Source: an uncultured virus (IMG/VR IMGVR_UViG_3300020576_005736)
Lineage: Duplodnaviria; Heunggongvirae; Uroviricota; Caudoviricetes
Length of the DNA: 20,000 nt
IMG/VR virus record: IMGVR_UViG_3300020576_005736
Reading direction: 5' to 3' (one strand)
The position numbers and the translations under genes were made by a program. Every line of letters starts with the position of its first letter. Position 1 is the first letter of the stretch. The notes beneath the pieces are model-generated. The model was not told the origin of the DNA and did not search any database. It saw only the letters and a list, made by a program, of their open reading frames with translations. Shown piece after piece: positions 1,583-18,500 of the stretch.

Positions 1583-2158
1583 TCACGGTATGTCGACTAC
1601 AATGTAGCCCTTCTTGACATCATGAACGATGTCGCCTGCCAGGCCTCCGAGAGCAAGATACTCGCTCACGCTCATGCCGACCTTGTACAGCTTGAACCGA
1701 TCGTAGGACTTGGTGTTGGGAATCTTGGGATTGCGCTCGACTAGCTGAACTATCACACGCGGATCGTGCTTGCGCTGGTACTGCACTCTGGCGGCGATGC
1801 GCTTCGGAAGTCCCCCGGTCCCTGCCGGCTGACCTCGACGATGCCCTATTGGGAGAGGAAGCGGTCGTCCCTCAATATCCGTGAGGGGTATGCCAGTCTC
1901 TCCTCGGGCACACAGATAGATGGGCTTCTCGAGAAGACAGCACAGAATGTCGCACCAGAAGGTCTCGGTCCGGGTTGCCATGGTCATGACGACCTCTGCG
2001 TGGGACAGATGCTGGCACTTCTGAGCCAGAGTCTCTCCAGTGGCTATCCGGGGGTCTGGCGGTTCCGGAACCAGTCGAGAGTTGTACAGATGGTCCCAGA
2101 GCGCCAGCGTCTGTACTCTTGAAAGTCTCTTGTATAGATCTGTATGTTGTTGAATCAT
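1583..2158 (-). CDS. hypothetical protein, NPKxP-domain paralog 1 (191 aa)
   Basis: C-terminal DPRVI..NPKIPNTKSYDRFKLY..GGLAGDIVHDVKKGYI. N-terminal part aligns by eye with 3189-3806. Confidence 0.85.
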   Translation of the reverse strand: MIQQHTDLYKRLSRVQTLALWDHLYNSRLVPEPPDPRIATGETLAQKCQHLSHAEVVMTMATRTETFWCDILCCLLEKPIYLCARGETGIPLTDIEGRPLPLPIGHRRGQPAGTGGLPKRIAARVQYQRKHDPRVIVQLVERNPKIPNTKSYDRFKLYKVGMSVSEYLALGGLAGDIVHDVKKGYIVVDIP

Positions 2159-2447: not shown

Positions 2448-3023
2448 TCACTCACTCTTCTCCTCAGTGGTGGATTCCGAAGCGGTAGTCTCGGGAAGCG
2501 GACCGAGGCAGATGTAGCCGTGATCACGATCCCAGTGCAGAGTGGACAGGGCCAGCTTGCGACTGTAGCCCGCATCCACCATGGCCTTGACGAAACTCTC
2601 GCCAGTCGCAACCGACTCAGCCTCGACGTCTCCGACCACCTTCTCGTAGATCACGAACGTGTCGAACGCTCGCGAGCCAGGGCGCTTCGGATTGTTCGAG
2701 ACCAGGAGGTGCAGCTGCGCCGAGAGATCCAGCGTAGTGGCACCGACACGAGGAGCACCCTCCTCGGCAGGAGTCTTGGCAGCCGAGGGCTTCTCGGTCC
2801 CCCACACGAGAGACTCGTCCTCACCCTCGCGCAGAACGGCATGACCGTGCATCTGCAAGAGCTCATCTCGAGCCTTCTCCAGTCTCGCAACACCAGTCTT
2901 GGCGTCACGGAACTTCTTCACGAAGTCCTCCTCAGATCGACCGAGAAGGGGCTGTGCAGCATTATACGCAGCCGTCAGCTGGGCCATGGTCAGGCTCGTG
3001 AAGTCATCAACAGTATTCGGCAT
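2448..3023 (-). CDS. hypothetical protein, NPKxP-domain paralog 2 (191 aa)
   Basis: GAGGAG SD; contains NPKRPGSRAFDTFVIY...LHWDRDHGYI. Confidence 0.85.
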   Translation of the reverse strand: MPNTVDDFTSLTMAQLTAAYNAAQPLLGRSEEDFVKKFRDAKTGVARLEKARDELLQMHGHAVLREGEDESLVWGTEKPSAAKTPAEEGAPRVGATTLDLSAQLHLLVSNNPKRPGSRAFDTFVIYEKVVGDVEAESVATGESFVKAMVDAGYSRKLALSTLHWDRDHGYICLGPLPETTASESTTEEKSE

Positions 3024-3188: not shown

Positions 3189-3806
3189 TCAGGACTCGAT
3201 CTGCTGAGCCGCCCACTCCTCGAGAGTGACGACTTTGATGAAGCCCTTGCCGAGATCGTACTGGACGTCGGCCTTGGTGCCGCCAGCCTTGATGAACTCA
3301 GCGATAGACTGGCCGACAGTGTAGAGCGCATAGCGCTGAAAAGCGGCGGACGAGGGCTTCTTGGGATTCGGGGCTACGAAGGAGATGATGCGAGGATCGT
3401 CAGGAGACGGAGCCGGACCCTTGGTCCCAGGCTCGTAGGTCACCTTCTCCTTCTTCGGACCGTGGGAACGAGAGCCGTTCGGACGAATGTGAGGACCAGC
3501 CTGCTTGTCAGGTCGACCAGTCGGCTCGGGATAGTTGCGAGTCAGAGGTTGAGACATGAGAATCTCTAGAATCTTGGGATCCAGAGTATCCCCGCATGCC
3601 ACGACCACGTCGACGTGAGCGACATCCTGGAGATGCTCGGCGAGCTTCTCAGCATCGGGCTCCTCACTGTCGAGGATGTCCGGAACCAGTCCGGCCTCAT
3701 GACACGCATTCCAGAGAGTAGCCACCTGCTCCTCGTCCATCTGCGAGAGATACTTGGTGTAGAGAAGTTCATTCTCGGTGTTGGCGGCGGTATTGTTGTC
3801 AGACAT
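3189..3806 (-). CDS. hypothetical protein, NPKxP-domain paralog 3 (205 aa)
   Basis: C-terminal DPRII..NPKKPSSAAFQRYALY..GGTKADVQYDLGKGFI; acidic N-terminal domain. Confidence 0.88.
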   Translation of the reverse strand: MSDNNTAANTENELLYTKYLSQMDEEQVATLWNACHEAGLVPDILDSEEPDAEKLAEHLQDVAHVDVVVACGDTLDPKILEILMSQPLTRNYPEPTGRPDKQAGPHIRPNGSRSHGPKKEKVTYEPGTKGPAPSPDDPRIISFVAPNPKKPSSAAFQRYALYTVGQSIAEFIKAGGTKADVQYDLGKGFIKVVTLEEWAAQQIES

Positions 3807-3827: not shown

Positions 3828-3889
3828 GCCCTGACTCATCAGTGCCGGGTGGGCGTATCCGGCAGACAGGCCGAGTGGCCTGTTTCGTC
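3828..3889 (-). ncRNA. type II hammerhead ribozyme with loop I/3'-tail pseudoknot (predicted cleavage between 3865 and 3864)
   Basis: RNA: GAC GAA ACAGGCC-ACUC-GGCCUGU C^ UGCCGG-AUACGCCCAC-CCGGCA CUGAUGA GUC A GGGC. Complete core (CUGAUGA, GAAA, GUC site), stems I-III, GCCC/GGGC pseudoknot. Confidence 0.9.
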
Positions 3890-3939
3890 TCACTCCCACT
3901 CCCACTCGTAGTCTCACTCCCACTCCCACTTGTAGTCTC
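3887..3939. repeat. 24-bp tandem duplication of the 3' end of the upstream gene
   Basis: gtctcactcccactcccact(c/t)gta x2 plus gtctc. Confidence 0.9.
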
Positions 3940-4516
3940 GCTCCTGAAGCGTGACCTTGCGGATCCGAACGTAGTCCGGAATTAGAAGACCGAGTTCCCG
4001 AGCCTCGACTCGAAGATCTCTGAGCCTGTTATCGATCTGCTCAGGATCGTCTGTCAGAGCTTCCTCGAGAAGGTGGGTGACCTTGATACTTCCACCTCCT
4101 GAGGCAGAGCACGTGGCCGAGGTGTTCCTGTAGGACAGATAGACGGTCCTGTCTGCACCCTCAGGAGACATGATGACCACATAGGCCACAGCGTCTGAGT
4201 CCATGCGAGGAGCCTCGTCGGCGACGGGTGCCGGGGAGGTGGCTGTCGTCCGCTCCTCGTCCATGTTCACGAGACGAAAGAGCTGCCCTCCGTACATGTC
4301 TCCGTCACGAATGACGTTGATGGTGTCTCCGTCGATGACGATGGTGTGACCGACTGTGTTGTACTGAACATCGTCCGCGATGAGAGGATCCTTGGACTCG
4401 CATCCCTGGAAGGCGTCCCAGTCAGTTTCCGTGAACTCACGGAAACTGGAGAGAGCGATCTTTCGCAGAAGTCCCAGAGCAGTCACGCTCGTCCTGATGT
4501 CAATTGGCGATCCCAT
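3914..4516 (-). CDS. hypothetical protein (200 aa; likely start ATG 4516)
   Basis: Strong AAGGAGGAG SD before MGSPIDIRTS; overlaps the upstream stop. Confidence 0.8.
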   Translation of the reverse strand: MGSPIDIRTSVTALGLLRKIALSSFREFTETDWDAFQGCESKDPLIADDVQYNTVGHTIVIDGDTINVIRDGDMYGGQLFRLVNMDEERTTATSPAPVADEAPRMDSDAVAYVVIMSPEGADRTVYLSYRNTSATCSASGGGSIKVTHLLEEALTDDPEQIDNRLRDLRVEARELGLLIPDYVRIRKVTLQERDYKWEWE

Positions 4517-4964
4517 GAATCTCCTCCTTCTTGATGTAGTATCTCGGGAACTGGACTGACTCGAGACGAGAGATGGTAGTCTCGAGAGTTGTGGTGAACG
4601 TCTCCTCCTCGGGAGGAAGCAGCCTTCCCATGTCACATCGTCGGTGCACGTGGTCCAGAACTGCTCGAAGCGCGTAGCTCACGTTGTCTCGACGGTCGCG
4701 GCGCGCCGCGCCGCGCTTACGCCCGGAGGCGTAATGCTGGAACTTTAGCACATCGTCGGCATCGACCGAGAGAGGCTCTGGGATCCTGAGACTGTCCAGC
4801 TCGTCAGCTACATTTCTGAGCAACTGCACGCGAGCCATACCATTCAGGCGAGTATCTCCCCGGTCCGTCACCCCTCGTATGTCGGACACGAGAGACTGGA
4901 GTTCCGACCGGGCAATTGCAAGAGCCTCTCGGACTGACGTCCTGTAGGTCTTGACAGGCATCAC
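4500..4964 (-). CDS. hypothetical protein (154 aa)
   Basis: GGAG SD; 4-nt start/stop overlap with the upstream gene. Confidence 0.75.
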   Translation of the reverse strand: MMPVKTYRTSVREALAIARSELQSLVSDIRGVTDRGDTRLNGMARVQLLRNVADELDSLRIPEPLSVDADDVLKFQHYASGRKRGAARRDRRDNVSYALRAVLDHVHRRCDMGRLLPPEEETFTTTLETTISRLESVQFPRYYIKKEEIHGIAN

Positions 4965-5281
4965 ATGTCTCCTTCCTTGGCGGAGTAGAGCAGGAGGACA
5001 AAGTCCGCTGCAGGGTCCTGCCCGTTCATGATCTCCATGGAGTCAGAGAAGGCAGGAAGCATACAGGGCGACCGACCATCGCACCACTTCTTGACCTCGT
5101 CAGCGATGCTGAACTTCATAGACTTGATCTGGAGGTATCGCTCGATGTTGTCGAGCATGGGGCGAGTCATCGGACCGCCAGAGAGGCTCGGACCTCTCGA
5201 CTCGATCCCACCCTCACGAAGAGCCGTCGTGACTCCAAGGAAGAGGTTGGGATGGGAACTCTGATCGTACATAATGTTCAT
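4961..5281 (-). CDS. hypothetical protein (106 aa)
   Basis: GAGGAG SD; directly downstream of the promoter at 5313-5341. Confidence 0.75.
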   Translation of the reverse strand: MNIMYDQSSHPNLFLGVTTALREGGIESRGPSLSGGPMTRPMLDNIERYLQIKSMKFSIADEVKKWCDGRSPCMLPAFSDSMEIMNGQDPAADFVLLLYSAKEGDM

Positions 5282-5312
5282 GGCATCTCCTCGCCGTTCT
5301 ACCTATACCCTA

Positions 5313-5341
5313 ATACTACGCTATCTGCAGGGCGTAGTAAA
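5313..5341 (-). promoter_or_regulatory. sigma70-like early promoter TTTACT-N17-TAGTAT with internal 8-bp inverted repeat
   Basis: Near-identical to 7118-7146; TACTACGC/GCGTAGTA arms overlap the -10 and -35. Confidence 0.8.
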
Positions 5342-5344
5342 GGG

Positions 5345-5617
5345 CTAAATTTGCATCATGTCCAGATGATTGACCAGCGGAAGGAACGGACGAGGCATCT
5401 CGAGAAATGCACGAAGCTCCGGAAGAGCTCCGTCAGGACTCCTCATGACCAGCTCGGTGACCTCAGAGGAGGAGACGAACTCCTCATTCTTCGGAGCTCC
5501 AGGCCCAATCTGATGAACACGAGTCCAGCCGCCAGGCTGATCAGGAGTTCTGCGGATCTCGATCCGTCCCATGTACATGGTCTTCTGATAGACCACAGCG
5601 TCCTTCTTCTTAGACAT
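5345..5617 (-). CDS. hypothetical protein (90 aa; start MSKKKDAV)
   Basis: GAGGAG SD before ATG 5617. Confidence 0.7.
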   Translation of the reverse strand: MSKKKDAVVYQKTMYMGRIEIRRTPDQPGGWTRVHQIGPGAPKNEEFVSSSEVTELVMRSPDGALPELRAFLEMPRPFLPLVNHLDMMQI

Positions 5618-5831
5618 CTTTGACTCCTCTCTGGATGCTGAGAACGACGCGGGTTTTGTAGTCAGAAGCTGAGTTCTCCTGGAAGATCTTCGTTCCCTCA
5701 ACACAAAGGTTCAGGAAGACCTGAGGATCAAGAGCCACAACCTTGTGCTTATGATGATTGACTGCCAGCCACAGCTGGTAACCATCGAAAGACAGGTAGA
5801 CTCCATCTCCAATATGAGTGGATTTCACCAT
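5610..5831 (-). CDS. small phage hypothetical protein (73 aa; HIGDGVYLSFDGYQLWL motif)
   Basis: AGGAG SD before ATG 5831. The motif resembles a recurrent small phage protein family (from memory, not searched). Confidence 0.75.
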   Translation of the reverse strand: MVKSTHIGDGVYLSFDGYQLWLAVNHHKHKVVALDPQVFLNLCVEGTKIFQENSASDYKTRVVLSIQRGVKDV

Positions 5832-6055
5832 TTCTGGTCTCCTGTCTTCGAGCCGACGGCCCAGCGATTGTCGGTCCACACTGCGAAGAAGTAAGCCTTG
5901 AGCTCCTCCGACACAGTGAAGTACGAGCGAACGTGGTCGGGGAGTTCGTGCTCCTGGACCTGAGTTGTGTGCTTCCGCTTCTCGTCGTAGATGAGGAAGG
6001 GAGCGTTGACCGGAAAGAGCGGTCGCTGAATCTTGACGATCTGATCAGTCATCAC
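5825..6055 (-). CDS. hypothetical protein (76 aa)
   Basis: Overlaps both neighbours; GGAG SD. Confidence 0.7.
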   Translation of the reverse strand: MMTDQIVKIQRPLFPVNAPFLIYDEKRKHTTQVQEHELPDHVRSYFTVSEELKAYFFAVWTDNRWAVGSKTGDQKW

Positions 6056-6557
6056 ACGCTCCAGAAGTCACGACAGGCACTGCGGAACTCCAGAGAGTTT
6101 CTCTCCCAGATCTGTCGGCGCATCTCATCGAGAGACTCCTGTCTAGCAGTGAGGACATCATCAGTGAGAACATCACACTGCTCGTCTGCACTCAGAGCAT
6201 CTGAGCACGTCTGGTAGATCTCAGCACAGACGTCCAGAGAGACAGAGTCCTCAGAGGTCAGGAACTCTCGGATCTTCTCGTCCTCCACGTGGTCCCATGG
6301 ACCCATAGTCCACTCAACCGACGGCCAGTAGACGATGACTCCGAGCCCCATGCTGTCTGCGTGCGAGTCCCGTATCATATCTGACAGCTGGTCAACATCG
6401 AGATTCGAGCACCTGACCATCCGAGAGATGATCTCGTTCTGCCCGGGACCGTCAACGCCCACACAGGAGCGTCCGTACATTCCTCGTCCGGAGTAGGACC
6501 GAGGTCTGAGTCCAACGCCTTCAGAGCGCGGACCAGAGTATCACAATCAATATTCAT
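6052..6557 (-). pseudogene. phage 'YSGRGMYG...CVGV' family protein split by a 1-bp frameshift near 6522 (mutation or sequencing error)
   Basis: ATG 6557 (GGAG SD) gives MNIDCDTLVRAL. The -1 frame continues EGVGLRPRSYSGRGMYGRSCVGV...DSMGLGVIVYWP to the stop at 6052. Confidence 0.65.
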
Positions 6558-6580
6558 TCTTGCTTCTCCGCTTTGGGTGT

Positions 6581-6633
6581 CTCCCGAGGATCAGTCCTCG
6601 GGAGTGTCTCTCGGTGAGGAGGATCAGTCCTCG
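6581..6633 (-). other. twin hairpins GAGGA-CUGA-UCCUC (one has a perfect 10-bp stem, 6581-6604)
   Basis: gaggatcagtcctcg at 6586-6600 and 6619-6633; no U-tail. Confidence 0.6.
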
Positions 6634-6845
6634 TCGTCCTCATCTTCGTGATCGTTGACCTCCTCGACCTCGTAGGCGGAGTCCTCCTCGTACCACTCAG
6701 CACCCTCGAAGATCTTGTGATGAGGATTGTCCTCGTCGGCTCCAGCCTCGACCATCTCCGTGGCCTTGTCCTCGTCCTCAGCCTCCACAGTGATCGTAGC
6801 GACATGGAGGACAGTGCGAGCAACCTTCACGTCAAACTTGGGCAT
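6624..6845 (-). CDS. small very acidic protein (73 aa; 27 D/E vs 5 K/R)
   Basis: GAGGAG SD before ATG 6845 (MPKFDVKVARTV...EDEDDED). Confidence 0.85.
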   Translation of the reverse strand: MPKFDVKVARTVLHVATITVEAEDEDKATEMVEAGADEDNPHHKIFEGAEWYEEDSAYEVEEVNDHEDEDDED

Positions 6846-6856
6846 CTTGCATCTCC

Positions 6857-6925
6857 TCGGTCCTGACTCGTCAGCGCCGGACGGACCAATCTCCTGGCGG
6901 ACACGCTCACTGAGCGTGTTTCGTC
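6857..6925 (-). ncRNA. type II hammerhead ribozyme with pseudoknot (predicted cleavage between 6900 and 6899)
   Basis: RNA: GAC GAA ACACGCUC-AGU-GAGCGUGU C^ CGCC(A)GGA-GAUUGGUCCG-UCCGGCG CUGACGA GUC A GGACCGA. Complete core; UUGGUCC/GGACCGA pseudoknot. Confidence 0.88.
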
Positions 6926-7870: not shown

Positions 7871-8173
7871 AGTACGACGCCAGACTCGAACACCAGGGGT
7901 CGGAGGGTGCTCCTTCCCGTCGTCAGTCCACGACTCGGTGGTCTGCTTCGTGATGAGGAAGTACAGGATCCTTCCGCTCTGCCGGAACTGTACTGCCCGG
8001 ACGCTGATGCGTCGCTGGAGGACGGCAGGAGAACAGTTGTACGCTGACGCTGGTACGAAGAAGGAGTCGCCCTCTTCCAGTGCACAGATGACCTCCGACA
8101 GATCGGAGGTGCCCCGAGAGCCGGAGCTTCGACCAGTGGGTACAGGGATATTCTTCTGAATCGTGATGCTCAT
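7853..8173 (-). CDS. phage hypothetical, putative small DNA-binding protein (IQKNIPVP...LEEGDSFFV...GVRVWR; 106 aa)
   Basis: GGAGG SD before ATG 8173. The motif pattern resembles a widespread small phage family (from memory). Confidence 0.75.
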   Translation of the reverse strand: MSITIQKNIPVPTGRSSGSRGTSDLSEVICALEEGDSFFVPASAYNCSPAVLQRRISVRAVQFRQSGRILYFLITKQTTESWTDDGKEHPPTPGVRVWRRTAEVEK

Positions 8174-8586
8174 GACAGACCTCCTGAGAAGATGAACGTG
8201 GTGAGGGCACCCCCCTCCTGGAACCAACAGTCCGTGAAAGACACGATAGTGATGTCTTGGTACGAATACTTCACCATCTCCACAATGCAGCCAGTCTCCT
8301 TGTTCTCCCAGATCACCGTTTTGCTCGACTTCGGGGCCTCCGCGAAGATCGTCCGAACCATCGCTCCGACCAGCCACCCCATCTCACGAAAGTCATCCTC
8401 CTCGCTCTCCGAGAAGAAGATAGCCGCTCTTCCAGGGAGTCTGCGTACAGTATCCTCCCACTGGTCCAGATCGAACTCCTTGCGGAACTCGGCCACGGAC
8501 TGAGGAAGTCCGTCCGGAGATGCCATCTTGATCACCTCGTCTAGGGCATGGCTGAATGAGGGAAGAAGAACAGTTGCTTTGGTCAT
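8170..8586 (-). CDS. hypothetical protein (~138 aa; likely start 8586)
   Basis: GGAG SD; first gene after promoter 8671-8699. Confidence 0.75.
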   Translation of the reverse strand: MTKATVLLPSFSHALDEVIKMASPDGLPQSVAEFRKEFDLDQWEDTVRRLPGRAAIFFSESEEDDFREMGWLVGAMVRTIFAEAPKSSKTVIWENKETGCIVEMVKYSYQDITIVSFTDCWFQEGGALTTFIFSGGLS

Positions 8587-8670
8587 CACAGATTCTCCGA
8601 GCTCTTCTTGAGAATAACGTAGTTCATCAGTACCTCCCATAGTGCTAGTTAGCTATACGCTAATAAACTT

Positions 8671-8699
8671 ATTATACGTATAGCCTAAACGCAAGTAAA
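8671..8699 (-). promoter_or_regulatory. strong sigma70-like promoter TTTACT-N17-TATAAT
   Basis: Perfect -10, 17-bp spacer, A-rich stretch upstream. Confidence 0.85.
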
Positions 8700-8769
8700 G
8701 CGGTATTTTACGATGAGCGACCGGCGGAGCTCGCACGGAGCGACGAAAACCCCACCCGGACGAATCGGG

Positions 8770-8855
8770 CGGAGCGACGGACAAAGAGGACACGGAGCGA
8801 CGGACAAAGAGGACACGGAGCGACGGACAAAGAGGACACGGAGCGACGGACAAAG
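8770..8855. repeat. 23-bp tandem repeat x3.7 (cggagcgacggacaaagaggaca)
   Basis: Exact units at 8770, 8793 and 8816, partial at 8839; no T on the + strand. Confidence 0.95.
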
Positions 8856-8867
8856 TACCGACGCGCG

Positions 8868-8898
8868 AAAGCCGCCCTAGGGCAGACCCTAGGGCGGC
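8868..8898 (-). terminator. terminator-like hairpin (12-bp perfect stem, short U3 tail)
   Basis: GCCGCCCTAGGG-CAGA-CCCTAGGGCGGC followed by UUU on the - strand. Confidence 0.5.
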
Positions 8899-9108
8899 CA
8901 GCGGAGAGGATAGCGGACTAGGCCAAGTAGCCGGCGGACCGAAGCCACGTAGCCGTAGCCGCAAGGCGACGCGCCCGAGCGGCGGCGCGGCGCGCAGGGA
9001 CGGACGGACAAACGCGGACGGGCACACCGGCGCAAGCGAATACAAGGTAGCGGCGGAGAGCGGACTTAGACATAGATAACCCCTAAGAAAGAATAGGATA
9101 TAAGCGGT

Positions 9109-9135
9109 AAAGCTAGGCGGGGTAGCCCGCCTAGC
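9109..9135 (-). terminator. terminator-like hairpin after gene 9158-9457
   Basis: GCTAGGCGGG-GTAG-CCCGCCTAGC followed by UUU on the - strand; adjacent (TAGCGCG)x3-4 repeat at 9132-9158. Confidence 0.6.
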
Positions 9136-9157
9136 GCGTAGCGCGTAGCGCGTAGCG

Positions 9158-9457
9158 CTACCCTACCAAAAGGTAGCCCTTACGTATATCGTATAAAAAA
9201 TCGGCCCGGTTAGCGCCGTTTTTTACCGCTAGCGCTTGGGCTAGCGTAAACGGGGCGGCGGGGTAAAGCGCGTAGCGCGCGTAGGCGGCGCTACCGGGTT
9301 TTTTGGGGTTAGGCGTAACCGCCGTTACGGTTACGGTTAGCGGCGCGCCGCCTACGTAGGCGGTAGGGTTACGCGGCGCTACCGCGTTAGCTACCGGCGG
9401 TAGCGTAGCGGCGGTAGGCGTAGCGGCGGTAGGCGTAGCGGCGGTAGCGTTAGGCAT
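9158..9457 (-). CDS. NPKxP-domain paralog 4 (99 aa), first gene of the early arm, encoded in dinucleotide-restricted DNA
   Basis: NPKKPGSAAYARYALY...GANRADFLYDIRKGYL aligns with the three paralogs. It has its own promoter, AGGGG SD and terminator; the N-terminal PTAAT repeats come from a 15-bp DNA repeat. Confidence 0.9.
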   Translation of the reverse strand: MPNATAATPTAATPTAATLPPVANAVAPRNPTAYVGGAPLTVTVTAVTPNPKKPGSAAYARYALYPAAPFTLAQALAVKNGANRADFLYDIRKGYLLVG

Positions 9458-9471
9458 TTGTAACCCCTAGT

Positions 9472-9509
9472 TAGCCCCTAGCGGGGCGGGTAGCCCCTAG
9501 CGGGGCGGG
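9472..9509. repeat. 19-bp tandem repeat x2 (tagcccctagcggggcggg) in the 5' leader, each unit a small hairpin
   Basis: Exact copies at 9472 and 9491. Confidence 0.9.
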
Positions 9510-9541
9510 TAGGGCTAGCTACCTAGCTAACCCTTAAACTA

Positions 9542-9570
9542 ACCTTATACCCTAGCCCCTAGCCCGTAAA
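9542..9570 (-). promoter_or_regulatory. sigma70-like promoter TTTACG-N17-TAAGGT
   Basis: Same TTTAC -35 family, 17-bp spacer, AT-rich upstream; +1 (~9535) coincides with the hairpin at 9511-9534. Confidence 0.65.
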
Positions 9571-9697
9571 GTTATTTAATACTTATGGTATACTACGGCT
9601 AAACTATAGCTATACTTTACTAGGTTTTTTTACCTAGTAACTATACTTATATTAGGTATAATACCCTAAATGGTTACTACGCTATACTACTATTAGC

Positions 9698-9718
9698 CTT
9701 TAGTATAATATACTAAAG
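9698..9718. promoter_or_regulatory. 21-bp palindrome CTTTAGTATA-A-TATACTAAAG (candidate protein-binding site)
   Basis: Perfect 10-bp arms; a second inverted repeat TTACTAGG/CCTAGTAA lies at 9617-9640. Confidence 0.5.
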
Positions 9719-10606
9719 TATTAGCCGCCCGTATAGGGCTAGGTATACGGTGGTGGTCGGTCGGACCGTGGCTAATTCACGTGTTTCCAGGTCACTCTTC
9801 TGACAATATCTGACACAGCTGCTGGGTGGGATCCTGGCAATCTCTCTGTCCAGCTTCTCGCATACAAGCATTGTTCTCTCCTGCTCTCTGTCCCGACTAT
9901 ACAGTACCACCGTCTCGTAGTATAGGCGCTACGCGGGCGGCGGTAGTAGGGCGGCTGCGAGGTAGCTGGGGACCGCTGGGAGGGTCGCTGGAGCCTGTGG
10001 TAGCGGGCGGCGGTAGTAGGGCGCGGGGCGGCGGCTAAGGCGGTCCTGTGAGGATGGGAGGGGCGCGGCTATAGGGCATCTGACATTGACGACTGAGTGG
10101 TTATTCTGTCATCAGGATGAGGTTAGGGTATGGAGGGCTGGGGACAGAGAGCGGCGCAGCCCGAACCTCGTACACATGACGTGAGTCCTCATGCAGAGAT
10201 CAGTATTACGTCACCAATAGTTTAAGCGCGCACCCTATTAGCACCCTTAATAGGTGCATATGTACAGCTAACCCCTTGTAATATAAGGACTTTTCAGCCC
10301 TCGCGTACGCACGCCTATATACGTGTCGCAGGTAAAAAATTTTCGTGCCGCCAGAAAATAGACGACTAATATTCGTAATAAGCCAATAACACTCTTATAT
10401 TTCAATAACTTAGATCCTATTAGTCCGCCTATTACGCCTTTCCAGAGGTTCCGATCTAATAGCTTTTTACGTGGATCTGAATAATCGGGGAGGGCGTAGC
10501 TGTTCAAGATTACGAGATACTTGCTCACATGACGTATATATGCGCGCGTGGGGGATTGTGCCAGAACTCCTCCCCGGCTATACTTGTCTGAAAGTAGGAG
10601 GATCTC

Positions 10607-10825
10607 ATGACAAAGAGAGCGACGTTCGTCCTTCCTTCGGGGAAGGTGCTTCAGCTCACTGAGCGTAAGGCTCAGCGAAAGACAGCTATCAACAAGACGA
10701 AGACAAAGATCCAGGAGCTTCTTCAGTCAGCAGACAGCACACGAACAACAAGGAAGATGACTCCAGAAGAGGTCAGAGAGCAGCTGAGATGGAATAAGGA
10801 TGTACACAATGCACGCAACAGCTGA
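10607..10825 (+). CDS. basic hypothetical protein (72 aa)
   Basis: AGGAGG SD; TATACT -10 candidate at 10579-10584. Confidence 0.7.
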   Translation: MTKRATFVLPSGKVLQLTERKAQRKTAINKTKTKIQELLQSADSTRTTRKMTPEEVREQLRWNKDVHNARNS

Positions 10826-11342
10826 GCTCGTACGATCAGTACTTCGATGGTCTCTCACTGTGGTTGCACACGAGGAGGCTGCGCACGGGCGCTTTCCCGG
10901 TCCCCGCATCTCTCAGTTCTGCCTCGGTAATCTGATGTCCAGGACTGACCCTGCGACTGCTGCTGCCATCGCCAAGGAGATCGCCGAGATCGAGAAGGCG
11001 GAGGAGACAGACATCTACATGGACTCGCTCATCTCCTGTATCAGAGCAAGCTGGGGACAGAGAGCTCCTGGCAAGCCGCGCAGAACAGGAGCCGAGGACA
11101 CTGTCATGGTGGCGAGCCGAATGGTCTCTGCTCTCAGACAGTTCAGCAACAGCCAGGACAGAGAACTCATGGAGGTGTGCTGCTCTGTGAAGACCTGGAA
11201 GCAGGTGGAGAAACTGATGCCAGGTAGAGTCTGGTCGTCTATTCGGGACGACTTCGAGAAGCTCTCTCGACGCTTCTACCTGAAGGAGAGCCACACAGTC
11301 TGCGCGACCGCAGAGTTCATTACTCAGCTCTCCAAGAAGTGA
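10809..11342 (+). CDS. hypothetical protein (~177 aa), possible late-transcription regulator
   Basis: AAGGA SD before ATG 10809. Function is inferred only from its position upstream of terS and a helical C-terminus. Confidence 0.7.
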   Translation: MHATAELVRSVLRWSLTVVAHEEAAHGRFPGPRISQFCLGNLMSRTDPATAAAIAKEIAEIEKAEETDIYMDSLISCIRASWGQRAPGKPRRTGAEDTVMVASRMVSALRQFSNSQDRELMEVCCSVKTWKQVEKLMPGRVWSSIRDDFEKLSRRFYLKESHTVCATAEFITQLSKK

Positions 11343-12166: not shown

Positions 12167-13540
12167 ATGCTCACAGCAGCCACGCTTCGCAAACTCCCGG
12201 CTGCTGCGCGTAGCGACTTCTTCTCGTCTCTATCGGACGAGGAGGCTGCTGTCCTCATGTTCGACTGGAACTTCTGGGCTCGACACGACCAGAAGATGCC
12301 CGATGCTCTCCTGGACACGTCCAGTCCTATCGTTACATGGCTCGCTCTGGCTGGTCGCGGCTGGGGCAAGACACGTGTTGGCTCTCAGGCTCTCATTGAC
12401 GAGGTCTACCATGCCAGAGCTGGACGCATTGCTCTTATTGCAGAGACTGCAGCTGACGCTCGCGACGTCATTGTGGAGGGCGACTCTGGCATTCTGGCTT
12501 GCTCACCTCCCTGGTTCCGACCAGCGTACGAGCCGTCCAAGCGACGACTCACCTGGCCGAACGGAGCTTTGGCCTTCACGTTCAACGCTGTAGAGCCAGA
12601 CCAGCTTCGCGGTCCGCAGTTCGACTTTGCCTGGGGAGACGAGCTTGCTAAGTGGCGCTATGCTCAGGAGACTTTTGATAATCTCCAGTTTGGTCTTCGT
12701 CTTGGGCGTCGTCCTCGACAGATCTTCACGACCACTCCTCGACCGATCAAGATCGTCAGAGAGATGGTCAACGACCCCACAGTATTTGTCACGCGTGGGC
12801 GCACACTCGACAATGCGGACAACCTGGCAGCGAGCTTCCTTGCTCAGGTGAAGCGCAAGTACGAGGGGACACGTCTCGGCCGACAAGAGCTCGAGGCAGA
12901 GATCCTTCTCGACACTCCAGGTGCTCTGTGGACGAGGTCTATGCTAGAGGCTGCGTACCTGAAGCCTCTGGAGACTGAGGTGTTTCCAGCACACATGTTT
13001 TCTCGAATAGTGGTTGCCATCGATCCGGCAGTCTCCAACGAGGAGGGGTCGGACGAGACGGGCATTGTTGTTGCAGGTATTCGTGCTAGCGACGATCATG
13101 TAGTCGTGATCGACGACCAGAGCGGAAGATACTCCCCAACAGAGTGGGCTCAGAAGGCTGTCTTCCTGTTCAGGAAGTTCTCTGCAGACCGAATCGTGGC
13201 AGAGGTGAATCAGGGCGGTGACATGGTTGAGACGACCATTCGCATGATCGACCCGAACGCTCCATACAAGAGCGTCCATGCCAGTAAGGGCAAGGTCACT
13301 AGAGCAGAGCCTGTCTCTGCTCTGTACGAGAAGGGATGGGTCCATCACATGGGGTCATTTCCTATTCTAGAGGACCAGATGTCCCAGTTTGCCAGAGACT
13401 TCGACAAGAAGATCATGGGGTTCTCGCCTGACAGGGTTGATGCTCTGGTCTGGGCGATCACTGAGCTGAAGATCGACATAGGCGACGGAACTGCCATCAT
13501 CGACTTCTATCGGAAGCAGACTGAGGGAAAAGAGATATGA
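12167..13540 (+). CDS. terL: terminase large subunit
   Basis: Walker A AGRGWGKT, Walker B FAWGDE, motif III TTTP, RNase H-like nuclease IVVAIDPA..DETG..PDRVDA. Confidence 0.95.
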   Translation: MLTAATLRKLPAAARSDFFSSLSDEEAAVLMFDWNFWARHDQKMPDALLDTSSPIVTWLALAGRGWGKTRVGSQALIDEVYHARAGRIALIAETAADARDVIVEGDSGILACSPPWFRPAYEPSKRRLTWPNGALAFTFNAVEPDQLRGPQFDFAWGDELAKWRYAQETFDNLQFGLRLGRRPRQIFTTTPRPIKIVREMVNDPTVFVTRGRTLDNADNLAASFLAQVKRKYEGTRLGRQELEAEILLDTPGALWTRSMLEAAYLKPLETEVFPAHMFSRIVVAIDPAVSNEEGSDETGIVVAGIRASDDHVVVIDDQSGRYSPTEWAQKAVFLFRKFSADRIVAEVNQGGDMVETTIRMIDPNAPYKSVHASKGKVTRAEPVSALYEKGWVHHMGSFPILEDQMSQFARDFDKKIMGFSPDRVDALVWAITELKIDIGDGTAIIDFYRKQTEGKEI

Positions 13541-14145
13541 CTCTTCCTGTCTTTCCGACTCTGACGGGAGTAGACTGGGACATTGAGCGGAAGATACTGT
13601 GGGCGACTAACAGGTACGTGTCCGTGTCTGGCCTCAGAACAAGCAGCCCGCTCAGGACTCTTCCAACAAGATCTTGGAAGATCCGGATCTCTCTCCTCAG
13701 GTCTGGAGTCTTTCAAGGACAGACACTGACTGAGATGGAAAGTCTTGCTGGGCTGTACAACACATGCTGTGGTGCAGCATATCCCTTCTCGTACAGAGAC
13801 GATACTGACAGCACTGCTGTGGCACAGGTGTTCGGGACAGGTACTGGGTCTGCTAAGACGTTCCAGCTCTGTCGATCTGTCGGGGGATTTGTCGAGCCAG
13901 TGTACCTTCCTGGATCCCCGATCTCTGTCTATAAGAACGGAGTGGTACAGTCCCCATCCTCGTACTCTGTCGGACCCACGGGCCTGGTGACGTTCAATAC
14001 TGCTCCTGCATCAGGGGTCGTCCTGACCTGGTCTGGATCGTACAGCTGGCTGTGTCGGTTCGATGAGGACAGTCTTGAGACTGTCCAGACGATGCCAGGT
14101 AGGTTCTCCGTCTCTTCTCTCTCGTTCACATCGGAGCTGTTATGA
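13537..14145 (+). CDS. DUF2460 / TIGR02217-type distal tail protein (GTA-like)
   Basis: FGTGTGSAKTFQL, VTFNTAPASGVVLTWSG..CRFDED motifs; synteny with DUF2163 and NlpC. Confidence 0.8.
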   Translation: MTLPVFPTLTGVDWDIERKILWATNRYVSVSGLRTSSPLRTLPTRSWKIRISLLRSGVFQGQTLTEMESLAGLYNTCCGAAYPFSYRDDTDSTAVAQVFGTGTGSAKTFQLCRSVGGFVEPVYLPGSPISVYKNGVVQSPSSYSVGPTGLVTFNTAPASGVVLTWSGSYSWLCRFDEDSLETVQTMPGRFSVSSLSFTSELL

Positions 14146-15146
14146 AGTCGTGCACTCCTGCTCTGGCCGCACTGTTGGACAGCGGGATGTACCTGGACGG
14201 AACGTCACTTCCTGATACGTTCGTCCCGTTTGATCTCTACACAATAACACTGACTTCAGGAGTGGTGCAGACACTTACCACGGCCAACGTACCCATCTAC
14301 GCCCCAAGCACTGACATCTTTTCGGCGCCAAGTGTGTTTACCCCTGAGGCTGACGTGTGGTTCTCCGGAATGACGTGGCTTCCGAGCGTGATCGATGCCG
14401 GAGGAACCAGGTCTACTGGTCGGTGGAGAGTAGGTCTGGACACAGACACATGGACGATACATCTGTCGCCGAGGAAGACGCATCCTGTCACTGGCGCTGC
14501 GGATCCGGATACTGTGGCGGGCATTCCCTGGGCCACAGCTGCCAGAACAGGCATGCTCGACCACGCAGACGTCATCGTGTCGCGAGCATACTTCAGCTCG
14601 CTTCCGACGTATCCTGTACCGGATCCTGGTGCTGTTCCTGTTGGTACTCTGACGCTATTCCGTGGTACTATCGGAGACATGGAGATCACTGACTCCAGCA
14701 TCACCATTGTCGTCTCAGACTACAAGTCTGTCTTCGACCAGCTGGTTCCTCGAAATGTGTATCAGTCGGGGTGTCCCCACCAGCTGTACGACAGTCACTG
14801 TGGTCTCTCGTCGTCAGCATTTGCAGTCTCTGGAACGGTGGCGGCGGGCTCCACGCGGTCCAAGATCCGAGGAACTGTGTCGTCTCCGAGCGGGTCTGGA
14901 TCATGGGTCCTCGGAAGGATGAAGATTACGTCAGGGCCGAACGCAGGTATCAGCAGACTGATAACTGCCTGGAGTGCAACACCTGGGTTTACACTGATGA
15001 CACCGTTCCCGTACTCGGTGACACCGGGAGAGACGTTCATGGTCTATCCAGGGTGTAACAAGACCCTGGCAGCGTGCACTCTGTTCAATAACACCGTGAA
15101 CTTTGGGGGTAATCCGTTCATTCCAATCCCGGAGGTGTCACTGTGA
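14142..15146 (+). CDS. DUF2163 / BR0599-type baseplate hub (lambda gpL-like) protein
   Basis: CPHQLYDSHC and GCNKTLAAC...NFGGNPFIP cysteine motifs. Confidence 0.88.
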   Translation: MKSCTPALAALLDSGMYLDGTSLPDTFVPFDLYTITLTSGVVQTLTTANVPIYAPSTDIFSAPSVFTPEADVWFSGMTWLPSVIDAGGTRSTGRWRVGLDTDTWTIHLSPRKTHPVTGAADPDTVAGIPWATAARTGMLDHADVIVSRAYFSSLPTYPVPDPGAVPVGTLTLFRGTIGDMEITDSSITIVVSDYKSVFDQLVPRNVYQSGCPHQLYDSHCGLSSSAFAVSGTVAAGSTRSKIRGTVSSPSGSGSWVLGRMKITSGPNAGISRLITAWSATPGFTLMTPFPYSVTPGETFMVYPGCNKTLAACTLFNNTVNFGGNPFIPIPEVSL

Positions 15147-15574
15147 CAACCGTCTCTCGCCAGACAATTCTCGACGAGGCACAGTCATGGCTAGGGACAC
15201 CGTTCCATGACTGTGCCTCGGAGAAGGGCGTGGGTGTTGACTGCGCAATGCTGCTGAAGAAGGTCTTTGAGAACTCCGGGGCTGTAGAGTTGTTCGATGC
15301 CGGAATCTACTCTCCACAGTGGTTCCTGCATCGGGATCAAGAACTCTTCATGGACACTGTTCGTAGATACGCACGGGAAGTCTCAGAGGACGAGGTTCTG
15401 CCTGGCGACATTGTTCTGTACAAGATTGGAAGATGCTACGCTCACGGTGCAATCGTTGAGTCCTGGCCGCATAGCATAATCCACGCACACAAGGCATCTG
15501 GTAGAGTTATCAGGACTACTGCTGATGACTCTGATATGCGCGGGCGACTTCGGAAATTCTTCACACTGTGGTGA
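15143..15574 (+). CDS. NlpC/P60 family tail-associated peptidase
   Basis: WLGTPF..GVDC catalytic Cys, followed by HGAI and IIHA histidines. Confidence 0.9.
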   Translation: MTTVSRQTILDEAQSWLGTPFHDCASEKGVGVDCAMLLKKVFENSGAVELFDAGIYSPQWFLHRDQELFMDTVRRYAREVSEDEVLPGDIVLYKIGRCYAHGAIVESWPHSIIHAHKASGRVIRTTADDSDMRGRLRKFFTLW

Positions 15575-15578
15575 CTTC

Positions 15579-18500
15579 ATGGGCGGATTCTTTAGCACTG
15601 GAAAGAGGGTCAATAATCAGACCCCAGTTGCAACGAGCCTGCGCGCACAGACCTCTGTCCAAGGACGGGCGAAGACGATCGGGTGGGGGCAAAACCGAAT
15701 TGCCGGTAACGTTGTGTGGACGGGCGACTTCCGAGCCATCAAGCAGTCGTCTGGTGGTAAGGGAGGCGGAATCGGCGGTAAGGGTCAGCCTGGATCGTAC
15801 ACGTACCGGTCTTCGTGCATCATCTCGCTTGGTAATGGTCCTATCGACAGTGTTCGTACGCTCTTCAATGGAACAGCTGTAGACTTCTTCTATCCCCCGG
15901 ATGCCTCGGTTCTGGAGGACCTCAAGAAGCTAAATATCAAGCCGAAGTACAATGATCCTGCGTATCCTGCGACGTTTCTTCTGGGAACGCAGGTACAGAC
16001 TTCGTGGCCATATCTCTCGACAACGCATGCAACAGAGGCTCTTGCCTATCGTGGAGAGGTACTTGCCTGCTTCGCGAACTTGAACCTTAACAGCTCTCCG
16101 TCCATTCCGAACCTCACGTTCGAGGTGCGATGGGGACTGAACTCATCTGCAGGGAGCCCTGCTGCTGACGTCAACCCTGCCGATGTCATTGTGGATCTGA
16201 TTGGGAACGATGTCTATGGTCTGAATGGGTTTCCTAGCGCTCTTCTCGACTCTCTTGGTTCCTTTCGACTGTACTGTCGTGCACTGGGGTTGTTCGTTAG
16301 CCCCGTTCTCAACAGCCAGGTGGCTGCGTCCAGCTTCTTAATGGATCTGACAAAGAGCTTGTGCGCTGAGTTCCGCTGGAGTTCGGGGAAGCTCGCGATA
16401 GTCCCGTATGTAGACTACACTGTTACCGGTAACGGAGTGACCTTTACTCCGGACACGACAGCTCAGTATGTAATCTCTGAGGATGCTCTCATTCCGATCG
16501 ATGGGGACGGTGGTGCATCTGTAAAGCTGATTGTTAAGAGGGCTGCGCCCTCGAAGAAGGTGAACAAGGTTCAACTGGAGTATCTCGATCGCTCAAATCT
16601 CTATAATCCTGCGACCATCTACGCTGTGGATGAGGCTGGGGTGATCGATGCGGGGAGTGTTCGTCTTAGCGATCTTCGCAGTAATCATCACTTTTGCATG
16701 GAGTCTGCTGCGTCTGCTGCGTGTGGTCTTCAGCTGGAGAGAGAGCAACATACCACCCGGTTCACGTTCTGCCTACCAGGTAAGTTCGTGCGTCTCGACC
16801 CTATGGATATCGTCACGCTCAGCCTCCAAGACACTAGTCTTGGGCTCGTGAACGTCTCTGTTCGGATTCTTGAGATTACGGAGACGGACCAGCGTACTTT
16901 GATGTGTGTAGCGGAGGAATTCCTCGGTGTAGCTACTCCATCCAGTCGGGTTCATCAGCGTAGCAGTGGTGACGCCTCTAACTCAAACGTGGATCCAGGA
17001 GAGATCAATCCTCCGTTCGTGTTCGAGCCTCCGTGGAAACTTGCTGGTAGCCTGGAGATCTGGGTTGCTGTCTCAGGCGCGGACATTGCGAACTGGGGTG
17101 GATGCCATGTGTGGGTGTCCTTTGACGGAGTTTCGTACTCACGTGCAGGCTCGATTGAAGAGCCAGCCCGGACGGGCGCACTCGTGCAGTCTCTCGCCAC
17201 CATCGCAGTATCCGGGGACAACCCAACACTTGACAACACTCACACACTTCGAGTGTCAACAGCTGAGAGTGGTGGAGAGTTGTTCTCTGGATCGTCGCAG
17301 GATGCTGGCGTTGGTAACACTTTGCTTCTCGTTGGTAATGAATATCTCTCCTACACAACAGCCACGCTCGTGGCACCATCTGTGTACGATCTGACAGGTC
17401 TCGTGCGAGGTCTGCACGGCACTACAAGCACTGTCTCGGCCCATGCTGTGGGTACTCGCTTCGTTCGTGTTGATGACACTGTGTTAAAGATTCCGTACAC
17501 AGCGGCCCAGATTGGGTCGTCAGTGTACGTCAAGATGACGTCATTCAACATCTTCGGTACGTCCGATGTATCTCTCGCTGATGTTGATCCGGTCACTATC
17601 ACTCTGGCCGGGACGAGCAGAACTCCGGCTACCCTCAGCGCTCTTGGGATCGAGAGCGAGATTGATGCTGCGATCTCGGATGCGATTGTTGCTGAACTCG
17701 TGCCAATCTCGGCTGCGATTGAGGTGAACGCTGACGCTAACCGAGTGGCTCATGCAGCGGATGACGAGCTCCGTCGTATGATCGTTGTCGGCTCTGAGGA
17801 CGTGCACCTAAACAGTGCAGCTGGCCACATGGTGGCTCAACAGCTCGCTGCCGACGCTCTTGGAGCTGCTGACAGAGCAGCTGCAGCCGTAGAACGGACG
17901 CAACAGATTGTCTCCGATGCGAGTGAGCAGGCTGCATCTGACCGCCTTGTAGTGGCTGCTAAGATTGACGACAGCTTTGCAGCTGTCGCTCAGGTGGAGA
18001 TCGCATCCGTCAATCGCGACAGGTCTATTGCGGGAACCATCGATCAGACAGTTGCCACTATCAACGGAGAAACTGGCACTCTGGACGCGGCTGTGGCCAG
18101 CATGGAGGCTCGCCGTGCCGGAGAGGCTGCGTCGGCGCTGGCCGCGCAAGCTCTTGCGGGAGTGGACAAGTCAAGTGTTGCTCTTGCTGAATTGGATAGA
18201 TCGCTCGCATCGGATCGGAGTGTCTGGATCGCTCGCATCGGGGAGGCTGAGTCTGCCATCGAGCGACAGACGCAAGTGATGACTGAAGCCGACCAAGCTC
18301 TGGCTCAGGACATCCTTACTCTATCAGGAACTGTGTCGACAGACCTCGCGACAGTTGACGGTCGTATCGACACTCTAGATCAGGTGCTTGCTACAGAGCA
18401 GGCTGTATCAGCAAGTCGCTCGGACACGCTGACATCAGGTATTGCTTCTGGTGAGCAGGATGCCGCCCTGATTGCGGCCCTTGCCCATTTTGCTGCAGGG

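Follow-up and report, generated by a model that had tools for sequence, protein, structure and literature searches.

A candidate transcription unit nearly free of T before G or C in an uncultured tailed phage, and its possible exemption from thymidine hypermodification

The divergent gap and its dinucleotide-free island

We analysed a stretch of 20,000 nucleotides (nt; hereafter the window) from an uncultured virus of the Caudoviricetes (IMG/VR record IMGVR_UViG_3300020576_005736), which holds at 9099-9750 an island where T is almost never followed by G or C on either strand, together with one complete small gene, P0001. As a stand-in for the whole genome we used G001 (62,065 nt, 99% complete according to CheckV), which has all sampled words of the window in common with it and of which base 42,612 corresponds to the start of the window. 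The island lies within a 2-kb divergent gap of this tailed-phage genome, between a leftward gene block (below 8640), which includes an ATP-dependent DNA ligase, and a rightward block (from 10607), which includes the small and large terminase subunits and distal tail genes resembling those of gene transfer agents (GTA-like). Only 9 of the 651 dinucleotide steps in 9099-9750 are CA, TG, GA or TC (GA 0, TC 2, CA 2, TG 5), a count that reproduces exactly that of the initial annotation, while 2000 mononucleotide shuffles keeping the base composition gave 162.6±8.6 such steps, with a minimum of 137. The depletion is far beyond chance and is not accounted for by base composition. The features of the gap are listed below.

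9099-9750, both strands: island nearly without T before G or C (step count and shuffles)
9158-9457, minus strand: P0001 gene, 99 amino acids (aa), stop codon TAG (open reading frame [ORF] and homologues)
9464-9468, minus strand: putative Shine-Dalgarno-like AGGGG, 6 nt ahead of the ATG at 9457 (sequence reading)
9472-9509, no strand assigned: two 19-nt direct repeats TAGCCCCTAGCGGGGCGGG in the 5' leader of P0001 (repeat family D5)
9510-9748, minus strand: AT-rich candidate promoter zone (sequence reading)
9749-9764, plus strand: conserved 16-mer GGTGGTGGTCGGTCGG at the island edge, candidate packaging or end site (conservation)
8712-9097, plus strand: T-poor block with 23-nt tandem repeats at 8770-8855 (repeat families D1 and D2)
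8643-8712, minus strand: second step-free patch with a near-consensus sigma-70-like promoter, ahead of the next gene (promoter scan)
8170-8640, minus strand: next leftward gene, 156 aa, likelier start ATG 8626 behind GGGAGG (ORF)
9900-10080, plus strand: G-rich repeat block right of the 16-mer, with 21-nt repeats at 9933-9953 and 10003-10023 (repeat family D4)

The four depleted steps make up 29.5% of all steps over the whole window, and their density is 1-2 per 100 nt within the island against 23-44 outside the intergenic region. Among the 200-nt windows of G001 (mean 61.8±10.0 steps) the island has 1-6 and every other window at least 24. The depletion amounts to a single rule acting on both strands, namely that only T or A follows T, which is the same as the formulation of the initial annotation (no A after C or G on either strand). 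In line with it, the A/T runs of the island are all of the T...A form, and TA is in about three-fold excess (110 against approximately 36 expected). As both strands are purged, the constraint would act on the DNA rather than on the RNA level.

The edges of the island are sharp (9098 and 9751). On the plus strand, few or no TG and TC steps occur between about 8643 and 9750, a wider stretch than the 9099-9750 first reported; CA and GA are absent too in 8643-8712 and 9099-9750, and abundant in the T-poor block between them. TG and TC are hence missing over some 1.1 kb of the template strand for leftward transcription; within this length, the two promoter-bearing parts and the gene are free of them on both strands. 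Outside the island the same context is enriched: genome-wide, 70% of T stand before G or C at a GC content of 55.7%, and the four classes make up 0.317 of the steps in coding DNA against 0.247 expected. Two general explanations were tried and rejected, (i) a genome-wide avoidance in non-coding DNA, where the share outside the island region is 0.292 against 0.317 in coding DNA, and (ii) a deamination resembling repeat-induced point mutation or that of APOBEC, raised by the TA excess and dropped because CT/AG is undepleted and the GC-rich half of the island is still GC-rich. As a separate observation, step-free runs of at least 30 nt number 22 in G001 against a chance expectation of 0.3, and 13 of these fall within the island or next to it; paired GC-rich step-free stretches of 35-47 nt in an island-like style (GGGCGGG, CTAGGGTAGC) occur at G001 13657-13764, 20057-20181, 39673-39796 and 41249-41370.

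The elements of a transcription unit appear to be written within this rule. Zone 9510-9748 contains, by eye, four TTTA(C/G)N hexamers resembling a -35 element and several TATA-type hexamers resembling a -10 element; TTTACG (9570-9565), a spacer of 15 nt and TATAAG (9549-9544) form one candidate promoter. A sigma-70 consensus scan found no site inside the island, because TTGACA itself includes banned steps, and over 8500-10900 it returned 3 sites against 1.5±1.3 in shuffles, one of them on the relevant strand (8699-8671). This last site, in the second patch, consists of TTTACT (8699-8694), 17 nt and TATAAT (8676-8671), with 10 of 12 matches, and the patch includes a step-free run of 49 nt (8644-8692). 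Both promoter-like regions thus carry TTTAC-type -35 hexamers, that is, TTGACA minus its banned steps. The TTTACG, AGGGG and TAG elements had been read correctly in the initial annotation. Each TAGCCCCTAGCGGGGCGGG repeat of the leader could form a CCCC/GGGG hairpin, as seen by eye.

P0001, its protein family and its relatives

The P0001 reading frame lacks E, C, W and H altogether, has one M, one Q and one S (AGC), and has two D whose GAT codons are the TC steps of the plus strand of the island; this composition, and the identity of the two conserved Asp with both TC steps, agree with what had been described before. The gene contains 6 banned steps, and in theory the protein cannot be encoded with fewer than 4: those forced are at Met, Gln and the two invariant Asp, and those avoidable are a TTG Leu and a CCC|AAA codon junction. 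Synonymous recoding with the codon usage of the phage gave 64.7±4.8 steps, with a minimum of 47 in 5000 recodings and of 45 in a separate run of 3000. The protein sequence follows as well, in that residues forcing a banned step (D, E, H, Q, M, W, C) number 4 in P0001 and 6-26 in its homologues, and P0001 has Tyr where 8 of 11 sequences share a His. No such depletion is seen in six further genes of the window (z +2.3 to +3.9), among them three paralogues of P0001. The rule is held near its theoretical limit, even within a conserved coding gene.

Three relatives (G002, G003 and G005) keep the layout with a weaker island. The minimum at the island position is 11 steps per 200 nt in G002 (large terminase 85% identical), 22 in G003 (88% identical) and 15 in G005, with genome means of 59-62. 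The initial annotation had proposed asking whether orthologues at the same position lack the bias; those of the relatives are depleted there, though less, with 46 steps against 72.8±4.9 expected from synonymous recoding (z -5.5) in one and 43 against 88.5±5.4 (z -8.4) in another. The island stretch is present on contigs from sequencing runs of several studies, one of which (run X3) carries a variant with 20 differences over 8826-9770 and 55 other letters in place of 9770-9961. The latter segment (190 nt, rich in TG/TC) is an indel adjoining the island, replaced in the run X3 variant and absent from L001.

We found 10 homologues of the P0001 protein (56-89% identical); in their alignment, 23 columns of the C-terminal part are invariant. 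The N-terminus of P0001 is variable and rich in Pro, Thr and Ala, while the C-terminal ~55 aa are conserved (NPKKPGSAA.ARYALYP...T...G..RADFLYDIRKGY). No Pfam or PHROGs family matched it, even at E<=10, and tblastn against 50,697 phage records gave no match at E<=1; of longer fused forms of the protein, none scored, a weak negative. In an AlphaFold 2 model (pLDDT 77), residues 43-98 hold three helices (57-62, 72-77 and 84-93) followed by a strand (96-98). Foldseek of this model against the PDB gave no match at E<=0.001, and alignment of residues 53-99 with the winged-helix domains of IclR, Fur, MecI and MCM8 gave VIA-align Z of 2.5-3.5, within the noise range; the modelled domain may, weakly, be called winged-helix-like. 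The best viral Foldseek match was gp18 of phage PhiJL001 (E 0.046, TM 0.54), and P0001 is homologous to the C-terminus of that protein (hhalign 96.9%, E 1.9e-10).

The P0001-type domain occurs in 5 proteins of G001. Three of them are larger paralogues with this C-terminal domain, which lie downstream in the same leftward block as P0001, have normal dinucleotides and were found by hmmsearch with the A1 profile; they are given below with their window positions.

3189-3806, minus strand: paralogue, E 8.6e-17
2448-3023, minus strand: paralogue, E 1.8e-3
1583-2158, minus strand: paralogue, E 1.3e-6

Another, of 233 aa, is encoded at G001 26447-27259 (L077 6561-7262), with the P0001-type domain at the protein end, directly upstream of the gene for a PF18723 protein of the thymidine modification kit described below. 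The same neighbourhood is found in 5/5 PF18723 records examined for the neighbouring gene (G001, G002, G006, G008 and PhiJL001; M6 excepted), and in Pseudomonas phage M6 this place is held by the P-loop 5-hydroxymethyl-deoxyuridine (5-hmdU) DNA kinase. A DNA-binding role tied to the modification system is suggested for P0001, which would represent a new small family of DNA-binding-like proteins linked to the modification gene cluster.

A thymidine modification kit and the reading of the island

In G001 we identified a PF18723 (HMUDK_hel) protein (L077:7398-8528, E 3.6e-43; 38% identical to M6 gp55) and a thymidylate-synthase homologue (L077:10444-11493, PF00303 E 7e-16; 41% identical to M6 gp58), the latter probably a dUMP hydroxymethylase rather than a methylase. 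The genome also encodes a dCTP deaminase-like protein, an HD nucleotidase, a T7-1.7-like nucleotide kinase, a TAGT glycosyltransferase and two Pyr_excise-fold proteins. A search with the PF18723 protein returned 100 phage records, mostly M6/YuA-like Pseudomonas phages, and its nearest cultured match is that of PhiJL001 (44.7%), a phage of the same family as M6. With M6 the phage has in common the PF18723 gene, the HD gene and the hydroxymethylase-like gene. The phage differs from the M6/ViI pathway in that PF18748 and PF18724 were not found in it, and a TAGT glycosyltransferase is present in place of the PF18724 transferase; in M6, gp54 (PF18748) is the kinase and gp51 (PF18724) the transferase (PMC8989533). 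By its gene content, this is a predicted kit for 5-hmdU in place of T with further modification, of the PhiJL001 type. A literature search showed no chemical data for a kit of this type. No gene for a Mom-type adenine modification (target A after G or C) was seen among the families found, no search by name having been made.

The rule of the island corresponds to the absence, on both strands, of a published hypermodification context. In M6, ViI and phiW-14, restriction-resistant sites share TG/TC, and Flodman et al. proposed that T is converted there (PMC6449724); in phage SH-Ab 15599, most dapT is at TG, with a smaller share at TC and little at TT or TA (PMC13458397). The motifs for thymidine hypermodification were still called unknown in 2018 (PMC5889632). 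In these four phages the modified context, T before G or C, is the context banned from the island. No exempt island has been reported for them, and full-text searching of the literature found no description of such islands. The first 6 kb of the record of E. coli phage ECML-117 likewise contain no CA/TG-poor island. As for the consequences of modification, bulky groups in the major groove stop bacterial RNA polymerase, probably as it initiates (PMC4838386), and templates with 5-hydroxymethyluracil (5-hmU) gave 250-350% transcription by the E. coli polymerase, reduced to 37% of that of natural DNA when the 5-hmU templates were treated with 5-HMUDK (PMC6457204).

These correspondences point to an exemption from modification, and we favour, with moderate confidence, the reading that the island escapes a TG/TC-directed thymidine hypermodification by the phage itself, which would serve early expression on modified DNA. 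An exemption of this kind had been raised in the initial annotation as its alternative (a unit left without a phage base modification at A after, or T before, G or C, and thereby readable by host RNA polymerase), and the 5-hmdU-type kit together with the published TG/TC context now speaks for it. In the infecting, fully modified DNA, the unit would carry 5-hmU and no bulky adducts, so that the stimulating base would be kept and the inhibiting adducts escaped where the target context is missing. Host RNA polymerase would bind tandem TTTAC-type promoters on the unit before any phage protein exists, the first gene would be quickly expressed, giving a small protein that may be winged-helix-like and whose family has a member next to the modification gene in the five records named above, and the template strand would stay context-free for a further ~400 nt, up to the second promoter.

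Packaging in lambda, SPP1 and P22 begins ahead of the small terminase gene, or inside it, and proceeds into that gene, so that the other side is packed last and leaves first. The terminase genes lie to the right of the island, as do the 16-mer and the G-rich repeats. By analogy, the island would be on that side of a conserved site, ahead of the terminase genes, which is packaged last and ejected first, and may enter the cell first. The T7 early leader has tandem host promoters and a first gene that is anti-restriction, and T5 has its first-step-transfer DNA; the island resembles these in having several host-type promoter-like sites ahead of a small first gene, where an early-looking block beside packaging genes begins. 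It differs from them in that its first-entry position is suggested by analogy and P0001 is without known anti-host function. An absence of whole dinucleotide classes is not known from the leading regions of T7 and T5.

Several findings weigh against this exemption from the phage's own enzymes. First, PF18748 (P-loop 5-hmdU DNA kinase) matched in 0/5 records at E<=1 (G001, G002, G006, G008 and PhiJL001), queries with M6 gp54 (tblastn, phmmer) gave no match, Walker A motifs being confined to the helicase and the terminase, and PF18724 (amino acid:DNA transferase) was unmatched in G001. Second, M6 gp55, the PF18723 protein of that phage, was dispensable in an in vitro reconstitution (PMC8989533). 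Third, the chemistry of the modification and its TG/TC context are, for the phage studied here, extrapolated by analogy. Fourth, M6, PhiJL001, G006 and G008, which also have PF18723, show no such island, and 57 viral contigs searched up to 10 kb around their PF18723 genes (885 kb) gave no comparable one, their minimum of 10 steps per 200 nt belonging to a phage of 36% GC. Lastly, the early genes downstream of the unit are normal in TG/TC. Host polymerase must then elongate on modified DNA, and the purge of the coding part is left unexplained.

Because the coding part is purged as fully as the promoters, we retained a second explanation, unlikely in our view, whereby unmodified DNA is needed for a job other than transcription. 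The island would then be either a replication origin, with iteron-like 23-nt repeats and an AT-rich unwinding element hindered by duplex-stabilising adducts, or a packaging and ejection end, at which terminase termination, the holding of the end in the tail or ligation after entry would call for bare DNA. The tandem repeats at 8770-8855 do lie near AT-rich sequence (9540-9720), a conserved 16-mer and G-rich repeats stand between the island and the terminase genes, the purge of a GC-rich coding gene is unexplained by promoter function alone, and phiW-14 fragments were poorly ligated (PMC6449724). However, tens of bases suffice for an unwinding element or a cut site, against the 650 purged, and the 16-mer is full of TG/TC on one strand. 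As for an end at this place, contigs of run X1 span the site, those of run X2 break at 9777-9779 in low depth, and the records are classed by IMG/VR as linear without end repeats.

The main proposal of the initial annotation was a first-injected stealth cassette, in which entering DNA avoids whole classes of recognition motifs until its product acts. In the form considered here, what is avoided until an early anti-defence protein is made would be a host defence that recognises GA-, TC-, CA- or TG-containing words (restriction-modification, Dnd, Ssp) or a nuclease against hypermodified T. The unit does head a leftward, early-looking gene block adjoining packaging genes, T7 and T5 offer a precedent, and nucleases against hypermodified phage DNA reportedly exist (PMC12191111). 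Nevertheless, this proposal found no support and we consider it quite improbable: a ban on two entire dinucleotide classes is far broader than any known recognition site, P0001 is unlike any known anti-restriction protein (Pfam, PHROGs and Foldseek searches), and palindromes, far from being avoided, are about twice as frequent as in the genome. Compared with 293 equal-sized genome windows, the island has 67 4-bp palindromes against 36.5±8.3, 17 6-bp palindromes against 8.8±3.4, and 5 8-bp palindromes against 2.2±1.5, while CTAG is 24-fold enriched (21.5 per kb against 0.9 per kb elsewhere). Avoidance of restriction sites or palindromes resembles the present case in that word selection overrides codon choice and even protein sequence, and differs from it in that here palindromes are enriched and the ban is two-lettered and local rather than genome-wide. 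Since the rule operates at the two-letter level, a dinucleotide-specific process fits better than motifs of 4-8 bp, and the ban most likely concerns an enzyme of the phage itself.

Two observations on CTAG stand apart from this comparison: outside the island it is strongly under-represented in G001 (0.9 against ~3.8 per kb expected from base composition), and within the island it is the commonest palindrome type after TATA.

Very unlikely, in our estimation, is a mutational by-product, in which TG and TC would have been lost through error-prone repair of modified T, for example by host glycosylases acting on the first-entering DNA. The three-fold excess of TA and a degree of purging that varies among relatives, as a slow process would give, are in its favour; opposed to them are the conserved protein, kept in a gene only 2 steps above its theoretical minimum, the many kinds of replacement with no single substitution type, and the sharp boundaries. 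An artefact of assembly or amplification between two real phage segments, which the low-complexity, repeat-rich sequence and the many homologues on short contigs might suggest, has a negligible probability in view of the recovery of the stretch in runs of several studies, once as a variant, the shared layout in three divergent relatives and the conserved protein family encoded.

Were the exemption from hypermodification real, T before G or C would be the predicted target of a PF18723/TAGT kit without the known kinase, and thymidine hypermodification would have a cost in readability, for which the phage pays by rewriting a transcription unit, protein sequence included. A wider statement, which we advance as tentative and rather doubtful, is that context-hypermodifying phages keep a small 'blank' boot unit (promoters and first gene) purged of the target step of their enzyme, so that the missing dinucleotide reveals the specificity of an uncharacterised system, the P0001 family perhaps being a reader or targeting module able to distinguish modified DNA from unmodified. 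The target context of DNA-modifying enzymes could then be predicted from sequence where, as in viromes, virion DNA cannot be analysed, and the exempt island and the rest of the genome would form a natural, testable pair for RNA polymerase on modified templates.

Flanking elements and other features of the genome

In the 16-mer GGTGGTGGTCGGTCGG, T occurs on one strand exclusively, and each of them is in TG/TC context. As the element GGTGGTSGTCGGTCGG(TCGG) it is found at 9749-9764 of the window, at 59179-59194 in G002, at 15678-15693 in G003 and at ~29952-29967 in G005, in all four genomes about 300 nt upstream of the P0001 orthologue; it is a candidate cos/pac element. It is carried by 54 viral contigs, the depleted flank being limited to the relatives G002, G003 and G005. 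The G-rich block to its right, at the equivalent place of which L001 has three ~34-nt repeats, may contain binding sites for the terminase or for an initiator.

The plus strand of the T-poor block (8712-9097) has 1-7 T per 60 nt, nearly no TG, TC or TT, and plentiful CA and GA. Relatives have T-free repeat blocks at the equivalent place, with 0 T in 60 nt at L001 2941-3000. Such a strand-asymmetric block, with 22-23-nt tandem repeats and a leftward transcript without A, is seen at 8712-9097 of the window, L001 2880-3120 and L002 2870-3040; if T is modified, one strand of the block would be heavily modified and the opposite strand unmodified. An ORF at 8653-9045 (minus strand) in this block was rejected as spurious, given its low-complexity translation. 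A putative ORF of 51 codons at 8918-9073 (minus strand), just past the P0001 gene, shares with P0001 the TAGGGGTTA-N-ATG ribosome-site context and has an Arg/Ala-rich, low-complexity product.

The next leftward gene (8170-8640) has normal dinucleotides (150 steps against 135.2±5.4 expected) and no Pfam or PHROG family. Over 8400-11000, Rfam gave one sub-threshold chance match; the DNA of 8600-10600 had no match among the 50,697 phage records, and the terminator scan returned 0.

Similar intergenic cassettes, apparently in opposite orientation and mildly step-poor, occur at 10200-10560 of the window and at G001 20380-20790 (L077 380-790), and have in common ggtaaaaaatttt, cctatatacg and recurring aatag/ctaatag words. 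The gene order is unusual in that the GTA-like distal tail genes (DUF2460, BR0599 and NlpC/P60) directly follow the large terminase (window 12167-15574), and a 1019-aa protein (G001 3852-6911) is a fusion of a portal with a Mu-F-like domain.

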